Sequence record: NC_048170.1 | Length of the DNA: 64,000 bases | Origin: Escherichia phage vB_EcoM_Goslar | Strand: one strand, 5' to 3' | In this document: in pieces, positions 7,847-53,807 of the stretch | Position numbering within the stretch: the first letter of the stretch is position 1 | Layout: every line of letters starts with the position of its first letter | Program-made: the position numbers and the translations under genes | The notes under the pieces: model-generated | Databases searched by the model: none | What the model was told of the DNA's origin: nothing | The model's input: only the letters and a program-made list of their open reading frames with translations

Positions 7847-8201
7847 CGTGGTGTTCAGCATGAGTCGCTACCTCATACCCGCAGCTTTACCTGCAGCTTC
7901 CGGTGTTACCGGAATGTCCAGAATACATCTTATCCATATTCCAAATGGAACGTAGGACTTCCGCGCTGGATCTCGCTTGAGACCACGTATTCGTTGAACG
8001 TTCTCCTGAACGGAGCTTCGCTGCTGATCGAACATTGTCGCGTACGGTAGGCGTCCCCGAAGGGATTGTCATTGAAGCCGCGTACATCCGCTACCTTGTT
8101 TCTACCTTATCGGTTCCTCTTACGAGGCGTAGCGGCCTTAGCCCTTCCCAGCAATTCACGGAATCCAAGCTCTTCCTTTCGGAAGGCAGGGCCTATGATT
8201 A
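7847..8201 (-). mobile_element. group I intron 2 (ORF-less, about 355 nt) in the nvRNAP beta' gene
   Basis: Minus-strand core elements: P AAUUGCUGGGAA (plus 8144..8157), Q AUCAGCAGCG (8019..8028), R GUUCAACGAAUACG (7986..7999), S AAGAUGUAUUCUGG (7918..7931). R and S carry compensatory changes keeping the P7 pairing GAAUAC/GUAUUC. Boundaries obey exon-ends-in-U and intron-ends-in-G. Confidence 0.5.
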
Positions 8202-8214
8202 AGCGTCACCGTCG
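8202..8214 (-). CDS. proposed 13-nt micro-exon (C GAC GGU GAC GCU) supplying the DGD of the beta' NADFDGD motif
   Basis: Joining exon 1 (...AAU GCC GAC UU) + micro-exon + exon 3 (AUG AAC AAC CAU...) gives in-frame ...GYNADFDGDAMNNHIVPDIW..., matching E. coli [15 protein letters not shown] in length. Both flanks obey the U/G splice rules. Hypothesis only. Confidence 0.35.
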
Positions 8215-9654
8215 CTTACGTGCACCGACGTTTATTAACTCATGGTTATCCACTGAAATACGGCGTTAGGGAAATAATCCTTCTTGCCGCGTTTTGAGAT
8301 TTGCAATGCCATATTACTCGGAGACAATCTGTAATGCCATGCTGCTTCATCGATAGAACTAAACTTCTTTGTTTCACCGTTATCAAAGATGATTTTCAAC
8401 GCCAGTTTAGGTAAATCGTCTTCCGTTTCTACTAATTCGAAAGAATCGATATTCTCTGCCAGCGTCAACGGATCAACTGGTAATATCAGCCAACCAGCAC
8501 GCTGCAATCCTCCACGTAGACTAATTTGTTTATTCAACGCAGGGGTAGCCATGCCAACTAACTTAGCAGCCAGCTTGCGGTCTTTAATATAAAGACGATA
8601 ATCTCCGGTATTATTAATAGCATACACACCAAAGTTATTGAACGATACCTTTCCAGCATCGGAACTAGTAAAGCCTACAAAGTCGTGGCTGTCGGTAGCC
8701 ACGTCGTATTTAAATGCTAATGGCTTGTTTCGACTGCCGCTAAGATACTTCTTGGCTGTAGATACCGATATGTTGAGATATCGTCCAATAGCATTCAAAC
8801 TTTCTAGTTCGATGATTTCTCCTGTCAATATGTCCTTTAACCGAACATTACCCATCGGTATTGGTGGTTTACCGACATAACCCAATTCACGATATGCGTG
8901 TTTCAAGTTATCTGAATCAGTAGCCCATTCCAAATTTTCTAGTCTGTTATCCCAACGCACCCCATTAAGATGATTAGGGACACGACGGATTATACCTGAC
9001 GTCGGATCTGGGTTAAATGTTTCAAGGACAATCTGATGATGGTATTTCACTTTATTGTTCCTAGTGAAAGCGCGATAGTTGTTTTTGCCCGACTTGGGTG
9101 GTTCAGTACGAAACAACACTGTCAGACTAGACACATCTACTATCGTACCGTTCTTATTAACAACGATACCATCAAAACCATTAACAGGACGATAATCAGA
9201 CAAACAATCTTCAGAAATTGCCTGTCCAACTAAAGGTTCACTCAATTTGACCTCCTTTATAAAAGAAGTCGGTGCACGTAATTATCGACTATATCTTCAT
9301 CCTCGTTGCGAGGAGTCTCCCGTTTTGGTCTGTGTTTAACAGAGCCTACTCTACTCGACATCGCGTCTTTCGATAGTCTGTGAGCACACATCTTAACGAA
9401 CATTCGTGGATTCCTAAACAGGTGAACGTTCTTGTTGAGATGCTTCGCTGCGGATTATTCCCGTCCTACCTCTTTTACCCTACCCAGTTCATTACGCTGG
9501 CCCTCATCTGTGTCACCACGATGAGTTGGTGTGTAGTCCGATTACAGAAACTTCCCGTCAATTAGAGAGTTTTAACTACGTTCCTGTTACCAGAAACCCG
9601 ACTCCGACGATATCAATAAATCAACGTAAGTTATTGATTTAATTGAAGAAACTG
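8215..9654 (-). mobile_element. group I intron 1 (about 1440 nt) in the nvRNAP beta' gene, carrying an HNH homing endonuclease ORF
   Basis: Minus-strand elements: IGS GAGUCGG (plus 9598..9604) pairs with exon end CCGACUU (U-G wobble at the splice site); P AAUUGACGGGAA (9552..9563); Q AAUCCGCAGC (9447..9456); R GUGCUCACAGACUAUCG (9371..9387); S AAGAUAUAGUCG (9286..9297). The HNH ORF sits in the loop of a perfect 10-bp stem (9268..9277 / 8220..8229); the intron ends GUAAG at 8215. Confidence 0.6.
8235..9245 (-). CDS. HNH homing endonuclease (intron-encoded)
   Basis: 336-aa ORF with HNH motif RRVPNHLNGVRWDNRLENLEWATDSDN and a helix-turn-helix-like DNA-binding segment (SLNAIGRYLNISVSTAKKYL). TTG start 4-5 nt after AAGGAGGU. 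Confidence 0.8.
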   Translation of the reverse strand: MSEPLVGQAISEDCLSDYRPVNGFDGIVVNKNGTIVDVSSLTVLFRTEPPKSGKNNYRAFTRNNKVKYHHQIVLETFNPDPTSGIIRRVPNHLNGVRWDNRLENLEWATDSDNLKHAYRELGYVGKPPIPMGNVRLKDILTGEIIELESLNAIGRYLNISVSTAKKYLSGSRNKPLAFKYDVATDSHDFVGFTSSDAGKVSFNNFGVYAINNTGDYRLYIKDRKLAAKLVGMATPALNKQISLRGGLQRAGWLILPVDPLTLAENIDSFELVETEDDLPKLALKIIFDNGETKKFSSIDEAAWHYRLSPSNMALQISKRGKKDYFPNAVFQWITMS

Positions 9655-51570: not shown

Positions 51571-51573
51571 GGG

Positions 51574-51754
51574 TTAGGCTCCACGAGGTCCCGTTAAGTT
51601 GCGTAATAGGAACGCAACCGTATCGTAACCAATATCAATGTTGAATTTATTTTTACCACTTACCCAGAAAGCTCGCTTCTTGTGCGAGTTGGTAATTTCG
51701 TCAATAGCTTCCATGGAATAAAGAACGTTAACCGAGACCGTATCACCGTCGAAC
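51574..51754 (-). CDS. virion-type RNAP beta' N-terminal subunit, proposed exon 2
   Basis: In-frame segment (G)FDGDTVSVNVLYSMEAIDEITNSHKK...GPRGA* aligns with E. coli [20 protein letters not shown]; a stop lies 3 codons upstream, so the exon must begin here; it ends 3 nt before the beta gene ATG. Confidence 0.5.
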
Positions 51755-53807
51755 CTTGTCTTCGCCTCAGGTCGCTACGCTGAGACCGCCTGCATGGATA
51801 CGTACATCACAGGCTGCTTGCACTTTCATGCAAGAGGAGACTATATCAAACCGTCAGCTTCACTTTCTCGATCATATCGAGAATGCGGCGCTGAAGTATT
51901 CTTCAGCAGCACCTGTTACGGTAACCTACACTTCGAAGACGCTTGTCCTCTACAGGGTGGTAAATCCCTTAGTCGTTGAACCTGCGTTGTTTCACATTCT
52001 TACAACCAAGAATGCCGTATTGCTACGCAATAACCAGGCTGCTGATTGCCCATTGTCTCGCACCTTAGCACCGCTTACGCGGCTTTTCTTTCAGCCTAAG
52101 CCTCTTACGGAGGTAGTGCATCTCAACTGTTGTTTCTGCCTTTCGGCACCTCATGGGTCGTTGAGCTTTAGGGGTTCCCAGCAATTCGTAGGTTTTTCAA
52201 GCACTCCCTTTCAGGAATACCGGACCTTATAGAAAAGCTATTTATTCAAGTATCTGAAATCCCACTTATCCTTACGTCTATTATCGCACTTGATGTCAGG
52301 ATGTCTAACACGGTGTTGAATCGTAGTCGCTGGTAATTGACTCACATTCACAGCCGATTTCGCGCCAAGAACAATTGTTTTTGTGTTGTCCGGACGAGTA
52401 ACTTCTACCGCTCGATGATGTTTACGTAACACATCACGCCAATACTCACGCCGTTCCGGTTCCGCGTATTCGAGCATATAACCGTTGGTATCGACCAGAC
52501 CGTAACTCTCGTTTAAACGAGAGGTGGCGGCTGGTCTACTAATACCAATCGCTTTAGCCGCGTCAACCACGGTTTTATACGGGGTCTCATTACCGTCTCT
52601 ATCTACAACCACAATAAAATCTGGACGCGAATCGAGCAGCTGCTGTCTTCGTTCAAGGGCTTGTTGATGAAGCACCTTATTAACATGTTCGAACCCGTAA
52701 CCTTCTGGACCGTGCCACCCTGGATTGTTATTCGCTCGATAAAGTATCGTCGCAGATTTCACTCCCGTCTGACGTGACGCCTCGTTCGCACTATGGACAA
52801 CCGTGGTAGTGCCATCAGGGTGATATATCCGTATCTGGTTCATTATACCAGAACCAACGAAATTACCATCAGCTGATTTAATGTCCGGCCAGGGTTGTGG
52901 ATCATCTTTGAATTTAACCACCCAACGGTTGTTAAACAATTTGACTTTCCGAGCATGTTTACCTAATGTCGTGTCTGTAACACCGGCTACAGCAGAGGCT
53001 TGCGCGATACTAGGATATTCCGTGACCACATCTTCTTCAGTATCCCAAAGGAGAACCGGTTTGTTATCATCACGTAGTCCGGTCTCAACCGCATGTAGAA
53101 TATTTCTAAGGCGGGTTGCCCATTCTAGATTGTCTAACGCGTAATTCCACTTATCGCCATCAAGATGGTTAACGTCCATCCTATCGACATCAGCCGGATA
53201 ATCTTTCCACGCTAAGAGCAGACAGCGATGAAGCGATCTTCTCTGGGATTTAAATCGGCAATCATGCTGCATACTAACGAAAACATAGCTATCGTCAACA
53301 CACCAGTGAGGACACTGACGGCCAGTAATACGGTTGATGATTCTACCTTTCCGGTTGGCCAAATAACGAGTGTGTCCGGGAATGACACGATAACCTGGGT
53401 ACTTAGCGATTTCGTAAGCAGGCTCGAACCGATAGGATAAATTATCAACATCCCAGTTAGATTCGTCACCATCAACAAACATCGCTTTGACGTATTTCTG
53501 TGTTTCAATATCAACCAGGATGTTTTTGTGTGCGATACAAATCAATGCTGGGATATTGAATTCGCGACCGGCTATGATAACCGTGTCGCCATTTCTCGGT
53601 ACCTCGACGTGGGTATCGCGATACCGTAAGTTTCCATAGCCGTCTATTTCAATCCAGCTTAAAAACGGAATGGGTATAAACTCTTTTTCAGATACTCGCC
53701 ATTTAAACATTTCAATACCTATTAATTACCACTTTCATATTAATAGGTTTAAAAGTTAAATTTGCCAGAAAACTGGCATTTTGTTAGCCTTTCCTTGATC
53801 ACCGCCA
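51755..53807 (-). mobile_element. group I intron (about 2.05 kb) in the vRNAP beta' gene, HNH ORF in the P1 loop
   Basis: Minus-strand elements: exon end CCGGACU (plus 53808..53814) pairs with IGS GGUCCGG (52220..52226) with U-G at the splice site; P AAUUGCUGGGAA (52175..52186); Q AAUCAGCAGCC (52037..52047); R GUUCAACGACUAAG (51968..51981); S UUGAUAUAGUCUCC (51836..51849). Intron ends in G at 51755. 5' splice site could instead be at 53798. Confidence 0.55.
52238..53710 (-). CDS. HNH homing endonuclease (intron-encoded)
   Basis: 490-aa ORF with HNH motif DRMDVNHLDGDKWNYALDNLEWATRLRNILH, similar to the HNH in the other RNAP intron; lies between the beta' exon 1 and the intron core. Confidence 0.8.
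   Translation of the reverse strand: MFKWRVSEKEFIPIPFLSWIEIDGYGNLRYRDTHVEVPRNGDTVIIAGREFNIPALICIAHKNILVDIETQKYVKAMFVDGDESNWDVDNLSYRFEPAYEIAKYPGYRVIPGHTRYLANRKGRIINRITGRQCPHWCVDDSYVFVSMQHDCRFKSQRRSLHRCLLLAWKDYPADVDRMDVNHLDGDKWNYALDNLEWATRLRNILHAVETGLRDDNKPVLLWDTEEDVVTEYPSIAQASAVAGVTDTTLGKHARKVKLFNNRWVVKFKDDPQPWPDIKSADGNFVGSGIMNQIRIYHPDGTTTVVHSANEASRQTGVKSATILYRANNNPGWHGPEGYGFEHVNKVLHQQALERRQQLLDSRPDFIVVVDRDGNETPYKTVVDAAKAIGISRPAATSRLNESYGLVDTNGYMLEYAEPERREYWRDVLRKHHRAVEVTRPDNTKTIVLGAKSAVNVSQLPATTIQHRVRHPDIKCDNRRKDKWDFRYLNK

Follow-up and report, generated by a model that had tools for sequence, protein, structure and literature searches.

Predicted group I introns interrupting the active-site codons of the two RNA polymerase beta' genes of Escherichia phage vB_EcoM_Goslar, and their differing occupancy among close relatives

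The window analyzed here is a 64,000-nucleotide (nt) stretch of the genome of Escherichia phage vB_EcoM_Goslar (NC_048170.1), and all positions given for it are those of the whole stretch. It contains two genes for beta'-N subunits of RNA polymerase (RNAP), one belonging to the non-virion (nv) enzyme and the other to the virion (v) enzyme, and each is interrupted within the codons for the segment NADFDGD or its equivalent, as an original prediction made from the letters of this DNA had proposed. NADFDGD is the catalytic Mg-binding loop of beta'-N subunits. Sequence and comparison strongly support three group I introns in these genes, A and B in the nv gene and C in the virion gene, whose predicted removal restores both reading frames; introns A and C each carry an open reading frame (ORF) for an HNH endonuclease, and introns A and B are separated by an exon of only 13 nt (Table 1). 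With splice junctions marked by hyphens, the restored motifs read ..YNADF-DGDA-MNNH in the nv gene and ..LGGD-FDGDTV in the virion gene.

Table 1. Features of the two beta'-N loci and neighboring genes in the window
Feature	Position	Strand	Description
nv RNAP beta'-N exon 1	9655..10910	-	Ends ..GGT TAT AAT GCC GAC TT (..GYNAD plus 2 nt of the Phe codon)
Intron A	8215..9654	-	Predicted 1440-nt group I intron; core roughly 9654..9269; holds the HNH-1 ORF; last base G at 8215
HNH-1	8235..9245	-	336-amino-acid HNH_3 and NUMOD1 ORF; TTG start after AAGGAGG; inside intron A
Micro-exon	8202..8214	-	13 nt, CGACGGTGACGCT; completes the Phe codon and encodes D-G-D-A
Intron B	7847..8201	-	Predicted 355-nt group I intron without an ORF; P7.1/7.2-type architecture
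nv RNAP beta'-N exon 3	7622..7846	-	Starts ATGAAC; MNNHIVPDIW...THC, stop included
Virion RNAP beta'-N exon 1	53798..55306	-	Ends ..CTT GGC GGT GAT (..LGGD)
Intron C	51754..53797	-	Predicted 2044-nt group I intron; core 52237..51754; holds the HNH-2 ORF in L1
HNH-2	52238..53710	-	490-amino-acid HNH_3 ORF; between the 5' splice site and the guide of intron C (L1)
Virion RNAP beta'-N exon 2	51574..51753	-	Starts TTC GAC GGT GAT; FDGDTVSVNVLYS...PRGA, stop included
vRNAP beta	51570..47224	-	Site after ..ADRDD (48376/48375) without an intron
Chimallin	12898..11003		Pfam Chimallin_Phikzvirus, 4.8e-25

The chimallin ORF, together with the synteny of the nv and virion beta' loci with phiKZ gp54-gp55 and gp181-gp180-gp178, identifies the phage as a nucleus-forming jumbo phage. 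A megablast search of both loci against GenBank phages returned no DNA-level match, and protein identity to the jumbo phages of the GenBank phage collection is below 45%. The close relatives used here are two genomes from IMG/VR with 95-97% identity to the window; loci L012 (nv) and L014 (virion) come from the first and L013 (nv) and L016 (virion) from the second.

The nv beta'-N gene is a homologue of phiKZ gp55 and RAY gp223, as determined by tblastn against the nvRNAP beta' genes of ~290 jumbo phages; the chimallin gene lies upstream of it in the same order as in phiKZ and RAY, and its spliced protein matches Pfam RNA_pol_Rpb1_2 (5.8e-9). Intron A matches the Rfam group I model RF00028 at 9645..9269 (-) with 46.9 bits (E=1e-9), slightly below the gathering score of 50. 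Its guide sequence (9609..9598) consists of CGUCG followed by GAGUCGG, of which the second part is predicted to pair with the exon sequence CCGACUU in a P1 of 7 base pairs (bp) with a U.G at the splice site, and the first part with CGACG of the micro-exon in a P10 of 5 bp. This P1 covaries between the window (CCGACUU/GAGUCGG) and L013 (CAGAUUU/GGAUCUG), with two compensatory pairs. At the 3' end of intron A a perfect 14-bp hairpin, formed by TTACGTGCACCGAC (9281..9268) and GTCGGTGCACGTAA (8229..8216), holds the HNH-1 ORF in its loop and returns the terminal G to the core.

Intron B has a P4 between 8153..8148 and 8027..8022, a P7 between GAAUAC (7992..7987) and GUAUUC (7926..7921), a P1 of GCU with GGC, a P10 of UCAU/AUGA, and a terminal G. 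We set its 3' end from homology to the tails of the phiKZ introns (CUGAACAAUACG) and from a gap-free protein alignment: in the phiKZ introns the last hairpin is followed by a terminal single-stranded CUGAACA(AU/UA)ACG, intron B has CUGAACACCACG at the equivalent place, and exon 3 aligns to phiKZ DGDQLNLTLMPDVY with no gaps. A candidate 3' splice site at 7859 (after CUCAUG, giving DGDALNTTMNNH) was rejected in favor of 7847 because all family members carry a single-stranded tail of 10-12 nt after the last hairpin and because DGDAMNNHIVPD aligns gap-free to phiKZ DGDQLNLTLMPD and to cellular beta'.

The predicted ligated junctions of the nv gene are ..GCCGACTT-CGACGGTGACGCT-ATGAACAAC.., and the spliced product contains ..ILKGYNADFDGDAMNNHIVPDIW... 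The micro-exon codes for two of the three catalytic aspartates and is required for both frame and motif; a direct splice from the 5' site of intron A to the 3' site of intron B was also considered and rejected, as it gives a frameshift and a stop. These 13 nt serve both neighbors, with the first 5 nt forming P10 of intron A and the last 3 nt forming P1 of intron B. The two introns are adjacent rather than nested, each with a complete core and a separate P1 and P10, and they do not constitute a twintron, since the 13 nt between them are a coding exon.

The virion beta'-N gene is a homologue of phiKZ gp180, PhiPA3 gp212, and RAY gp163 (tblastn) and lies in a syntenic locus with a tail-lysozyme gene and the vRNAP beta gene nearby. 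Intron C matches RF00028 at 52245..51817 (-) with 67.7 bits, above the gathering score. Its guide, GUC(CGG), begins at 52225, and the exon side of P1 is GAU paired with GUC. The spliced product, ..YLAGLGGD-FDGDTVSVNV.., matches PhiPA3 gp212 (LTADFDGDTVSF) and RAY gp163 (LLGGDYDGDTMS), and exon 2 matches PhiPA3 gp212 (FDGDTVSFNAVYS) and phiKZ. The predicted ligated junction is ..GGCGGTGAT-TTCGACGGT.., and the L014 relative carries an intron-less allele, ..GGTGGGGAC-TTTGATGGTGAT, that agrees exactly with the predicted GGD-FDGD junction.

A 5' splice site for intron C nine nt upstream was considered as well, since CCGGACU (53816..53810) pairs perfectly over 7 bp with GGUCCGG (52226..52220). It was rejected because its use would lose the first catalytic aspartate, because the L014 allele gives GGD-FDGD, and because the pairing is absent from L016. 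The complementarity overlaps the guide and would direct a wrong splice; its absence from L016 makes chance the probable explanation, and it may otherwise be a regulatory alternative pairing. Separately, we observed a hairpin, GCCAGTTTTCTGGC, at 53772..53757, which lies 26 nt inside intron C, ahead of the HNH-2 start; it belongs to a weak Rfam FtrA-like match (E=0.67) and could be an extension of P1, a terminator, or a processing signal. Within the neighboring tail-lysozyme gene (~56.2-56.4 kb of the window), L014 and L016 show at 3961..4066 (-) an Rfam S15-leader match of 32 and 28 bits, below the gathering score of 39.5, which is probably a false positive within coding sequence.

Since intron B matches the Rfam model only in part, its group I membership is argued from conserved helices and from the features of P1 and the terminal G, a base on which all three introns end. 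The four B-type copies available (one each from the window and L013 and two from L012, one of the latter ~78% identical) fold as P2-P9.2 with a P7.1/7.2-type hairpin, a fold of 99 pairs that is 98.7% paired. Changes on both sides occur in 31 of these 99 pairs, against 9.7±2.4 in shuffled sets (0/500 reaching the observed value) and 1-2 in slid controls. P7 itself occurs in three compensated versions (GAAUAC/GUAUUC, GAGUA/UACUC, and GAUCAU/AUGAUC), with the G-C and A-U pairs at its guanosine-binding position kept in the B-type copies. The 3-base guide also follows the exon, being GCU/GGC in intron B, GAU/GUC in intron C, GAC/GUC in Vibrio phage vB_pir03, GGU/GCC in Proteus phage 7, and GGAU/GUCC in L016.

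Both intron ORFs are strongly supported, by their sequence profiles, as HNH_3-family nucleases. The Pfam HNH_3 scores are 31.1 bits for HNH-1 and 33.6 bits for HNH-2 (cut-off 24.8), and HNH-1 also exceeds the NUMOD1 cut-off of 22.8 with 24.0 bits; an I-HmuI_NUMOD-like profile reached 16.9 bits against a cut-off of 27. In a search of PDB sequences HNH-2 matched I-HmuI (1U3E) weakly (E=0.0098). We compared seven jumbo-phage intron HNH proteins by all-against-all blastp, and in this panel the best match of HNH-2 is phiKZ gp179 (31% over 228 amino acids, 105 bits), that of HNH-1 is PhiPA3 gp210 (64 bits), and the pair with the lowest score is HNH-1 with HNH-2 (26% over 106 amino acids, 38 bits). 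In IMG/VR, searches for proteins close to HNH-1 or HNH-2 returned only the phage's own genome.

Comparison with the two close relatives strongly supports, at the level of sequence, the gain and loss of both introns and ORFs. The nv gene occurs in three configurations. Where the window has intron A with HNH-1, the 13-nt micro-exon, and intron B, the L013/L016 genome has an additional intron (i0), a 13-nt micro-exon, an intron A without an ORF, a second 13-nt micro-exon, and intron B, with no HNH ORF. The L012/L014 genome has two introns (i1 and i2) around an 18-nt micro-exon and lacks both intron A and any HNH ORF. In L013, i0 interrupts the Tyr codon (T-AT), and micro-exons 1 and 2 are ATAATGCAGATTT and CGACGGTGACGCT, respectively; in L012 the B-like intron i1 lies between the NA and D codons, the 18-nt micro-exon is GACTTTGACGGTGATGCC, and i2 is the orthologue of intron B. 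The spliced proteins of all three configurations are identical over the 104 residues compared, which validates every junction, micro-exons included. The P1 and P10 pairings agree with each of the proposed junctions as well. By sequence and comparison, then, the introns are removable at the RNA level to join exon 1, micro-exon, and exon 3 in the nv gene and the two exons of the virion gene.

The HNH ORFs differ among the same genomes. Intron A of L013 is 376 nt long and ends in GATAA-CA-G; two bases (CA) stand there in place of the HNH-1 ORF and the 14-bp inverted repeat of the window, which gives exact boundaries for the cassette. Intron C, which holds HNH-2 in the window, is present without an ORF in L016, where homology with the window begins exactly at the guide sequence, and is absent from L014. 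The survey for intron-plus and intron-minus alleles that the original prediction had called for thus found both kinds, intron C being missing from L014 and intron A from L012. A third position, after ..ADRDD in the vRNAP beta gene, is free of introns in the window and holds group I introns in both relatives (L014 9869..>11400 and L016 10399..~10850; Rfam 51-54 bits), that of L014 with an HNH ORF of 403 amino acids and that of L016 without an ORF. The three strains carry nuclease ORFs in different RNAP genes.

Substitutions in the exons cluster at the insertion sites. All five nv exon differences from L013 fall into a single 30-nt bin at the insertion site, L014 has 5 synonymous changes no more than 9 nt from the site of intron C, and L016 has 9 changes within the last 30 nt of virion exon 1. 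When other phages are included, six insertion points fall within ~28 nt: in the Tyr codon (T-AT), between N and A, between A and D, between D and F, in the Phe codon (TT-C), and after DGDx. The original prediction's wording of one and the same site holds for the codons struck and not for the exact points, as intron C lies between D and F, intron A 2 nt downstream at TT-C, and intron B 15 nt downstream; its span ran from 7847, the last base of intron B, to 53807, 10 nt upstream of the first base of intron C (53797).

Both beta' genes of phiKZ are already known to carry HNH-bearing group I introns in their active-site codons; PMC11512511 credits Mesyanzhinov 2002 and Ceyssens 2014 with reporting the introns of gp55 and gp180 together with gp56, gp72, and gp179. 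In gp55 the intron with HNH gp56 lies between N and A of NADFDGD (Rfam 75.6 bits; exon 2 is annotated PHIKZ056.1), and in gp180 the intron with HNH gp179 lies between D and F (92.2 bits). The window resembles phiKZ in the same two beta'-N genes, the same NADFDGD segment, cores of the same family, and an HNH ORF between the 5' splice site and the guide; intron C sits at the exact gp180 site with its ORF in an equal position, and HNH-2 is nearest to gp179. Unlike the window, phiKZ has one intron per gene, and the window lacks an intron at the site between N and A used in gp55. The nv gene of the window is occupied instead at TT-C and after DGDA, by two introns that flank the 13-nt micro-exon, and intron A, the one with the HNH ORF, comes from a different core lineage and holds that ORF in a 3' hairpin.

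Introns of the same family occur in the nv beta' genes of the SPN3US-like Proteus phage 7 (between G and D) and of Vibrio phage vB_pir03 (between D and F). In the phiKZ-like Pseudomonas phage U5 (locus L009, 2160..2640) the gp55 intron scores 80.4 bits and its HNH ORF is down to a remnant of 38 codons, by its sequence a further case of ORF loss with the ribozyme kept. The closest cores to intron A are those of the HNH-bearing DNA polymerase intron of Pseudomonas phage HPP-Temi (L007, 3907..4242) and of a PhiPA3 segment at 55215..55304 in gene 065, which is an nvRNAP beta fragment and homologue of the phiKZ gp71-73 intron; the presence of A-like cores in these HPP-Temi and PhiPA3 genes indicates that the lineage occupies several different host genes.

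PhiPA3 gp210 (Birkholz et al. 2024, PMC11620839) provides a precedent for interference competition between coinfecting chimalliviruses, and for the exclusion of coinfecting relatives that the original prediction had raised as a further possibility. It resembles the present case as an HNH ORF in a group I intron of a jumbo-phage RNAP gene, placed right after conserved catalytic aspartates, and differs in lying in vRNAP beta rather than beta', at a site that is empty in the window and occupied in L014 and L016. I-HmuI and I-HmuII of Bacillus phages SPO1 and SP82, described as belonging to competing introns with co-conversion of flanking markers (refs 48 and 63 as cited in PMC12908238), are likewise HNH_3/NUMOD-type intron endonucleases in phage polymerase genes; their host gene encodes DNA polymerase and has a single intron, and their kinship to HNH-1 and HNH-2 is at the family level only. 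Several group I introns within one phage gene are found in Twort orf142 and phiNIT1 rNDPL, and cDNA sequencing of the latter revealed a small exon flanked by two introns (PMC11878797). In contrast to these, the internal exons here measure 13 nt, or 18 nt in L012, and code for active-site residues, up to three introns fall within ~30 nt of coding sequence, and the arrangement is polymorphic at the strain level. The stacked introns with their micro-exons and the strain-level polymorphism are what the present genomes add to the phiKZ precedent.

We consider it highly probable that the beta' active-site codons are a long-standing group I intron hotspot in nucleus-forming jumbo phages, with three independent occupants in this phage that are subject to homing and turnover. 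Intron C would be the counterpart of the phiKZ gp180/gp179 intron, intron A a member of a different ribozyme lineage, and intron B a phiKZ-type member without an ORF. By analogy with I-HmuI, the HNH_3/NUMOD proteins would act as homing nucleases that nick or cut those alleles of coinfecting relatives in which the intron is missing or the occupancy is different, and repair would then copy the intron along with a short stretch of the exon next to it. The population would be in flux, each intron and each ORF being carried by some and missing from others of the genomes that are 95-97% identical. Presence and absence among such genomes and the clustering of substitutions at the sites bear out the proposal that homing-type elements occupy the conserved active-site DNA.

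Several points weigh against this reading. The Rfam match of intron B is partial (16.7 bits, E=0.057), and its covariation comes from four sequences that represent three independent lineages only. In introns B and C the exon contributes just 3-4 bp to P1, few for efficient self-splicing, and we infer the splicing of all three introns from sequence. HNH-2 scores 21.2 bits for NUMOD1, below the cut-off of 22.8, and HNH-1 had no significant match in the search of PDB sequences. The clustered substitutions could also reflect selection for P1 pairing or for nuclease resistance rather than co-conversion.

As an alternative to the hotspot with homing and turnover, it is rather unlikely that the ORF-less introns spread without nuclease homing, through reverse splicing or through recombination of one intron copy with another, and that stacked neighbors persist by breaking up the sites of rival nucleases. 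The appeal of this alternative lies in the B-type introns, which occur at two sites with the common 5' flank ACGCU (AAC GCU for i1 of L012 and GAC GCU for intron B of the window) and use the same 3-nt guide, GGC, at both; a 3-nt match is weak evidence, and ordinary homing from different donors could yield the same pattern. In L012, moreover, the site of intron A falls inside the 18-nt micro-exon flanked by introns, so that a longer HNH-1 target is interrupted. The introns i1 (L012 6570..6597) and i0 (L013 6578..6605) also have an identical 30-nt 3' module, GGGTATGGAGTAGCGAACCATACTGAAGAT, despite different cores and sites, which hints at modular recombination between introns.

The original prediction had favored one HNH-bearing intron that recently jumped between the virion and nv beta' genes by homing on their shared NADFDGD DNA and whose ORF moved later, a history that we judge improbable. 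Both genes are indeed struck within seven shared codons, and two of the three cores do share the exact string AATTGCTGGGAA, at 8156..8145 in intron B and 52186..52175 in intron C (intron A has AATTGACGGGAA at 9563..9552); when two mismatches are allowed the string occurs 7 times, no excess over the 4.9 expected by chance, while its two exact copies do lie within verified cores. Introns B and C also share AAUUGCUGGGAA, a terminal hairpin with the loop GUAGCGA, and a stretch of 102 nt at 70.6% identity in local blastn, where intron A gives only short matches to the conserved core. A global MAFFT alignment of introns B and C misaligned their 3' halves, and local blastn and the comparison across the family were used for this pair in its place.

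In global alignment the cores of introns B and C are 52% identical, compared with 53-57% for either of them against introns of other phages (56% for intron B and the phiKZ gp55 intron, and 57% for intron C and Proteus phage 7). The core of intron A, the nv intron that bears an HNH ORF, is only 40-43% identical to those of introns B and C and finds its closest counterpart in the panel in the HPP-Temi DNA polymerase intron (66%). The HNH strings cited as near-identical are present verbatim, NHLNGVRWDNRLENLEWAT in HNH-1 and NHLDGDKWNYALDNLEWAT in HNH-2, yet they are the signature of the HNH_3 family. Aligned with one another, cores and HNH proteins are thus essentially no more similar than they are to introns of other phages, and they lack the mutual closest relationship in core and ORF that a recent transfer from paralog to paralog would predict. 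With HNH-1 and HNH-2 the weakest pair of their panel, with the core that resembles intron C being the ORF-less intron B, and with insertion points 2 and 15 nt apart, the sequences do not support a recent jump between the paralogs of this phage, nor a single endonuclease and intron spreading between them.

The ORFs are differently placed in the two introns, as had been proposed, that of intron A in the loop of the 3' 14-bp hairpin and that of intron C in L1. The further suggestion of a rearrangement after invasion is not supported; the relatives have ORF-less introns A and C, with sharp limits to the ORF cassettes, which are separable, and independent gain or loss of each ORF fits better. Exchange between paralogs does have a parallel in this phage group. 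The two phiKZ introns (L008, 3686..4019, and L010, 3892..4205) are 74% identical overall and 88/90 identical in their last 90 nt, from P7' to the 3' end, in contrast to only ~65-70% outside this 3' region and only 30% between their HNH proteins. This suggests gene conversion between intron copies in the phiKZ paralogs, where a transfer of introns from paralog to paralog looks likely, and an ancient transfer of this kind may also have occurred in the core family of introns B and C.

That one or more of the elements, and intron B in particular, is a decayed remnant that no longer splices, leaving the nv beta' gene a pseudogene or expressed in fragments, might be read from the partial Rfam match, the missing ORF, and the very short P1 of intron B, and is very improbable given the B-type helices maintained through 31 double changes that include P7, the retained G-binding pairs, the identical spliced protein kept by three genomes with different intron sets, and a micro-exon with two catalytic aspartates in a gene that belongs to the conserved set of these phages.

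Returning to the hotspot with homing and turnover, we tentatively raise the possibility that the beta' codons are an arena of competition between introns of co-circulating strains, in which ORF-less introns spread to nearby positions by matching a guide of 3-4 nt and stacking across 13 nt shields an allele. Spread by guide matching and protection of an allele by split nuclease sites are both speculative. If the competition is real, the strains would be armed at different sites, with HNH ORFs in both beta' genes of the window, in v beta only of the L012/L014 genome, and ORF-less introns at all of these sites in the L013/L016 genome, and the 13-nt exon would be the shortest workable spacer that still gives P10 to the intron upstream and P1 to the intron downstream.

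These findings bear on annotation, as beta' genes of this kind are routinely miscalled as truncated ORFs and "hypothetical proteins." The loci would provide a natural system for studying the minimum exon that two self-splicing introns can share and the turnover of introns and their nucleases. They would also offer one for intron nucleases as weapons between coinfecting nucleus-forming phages, a role shown once, for PhiPA3 against phiKZ.

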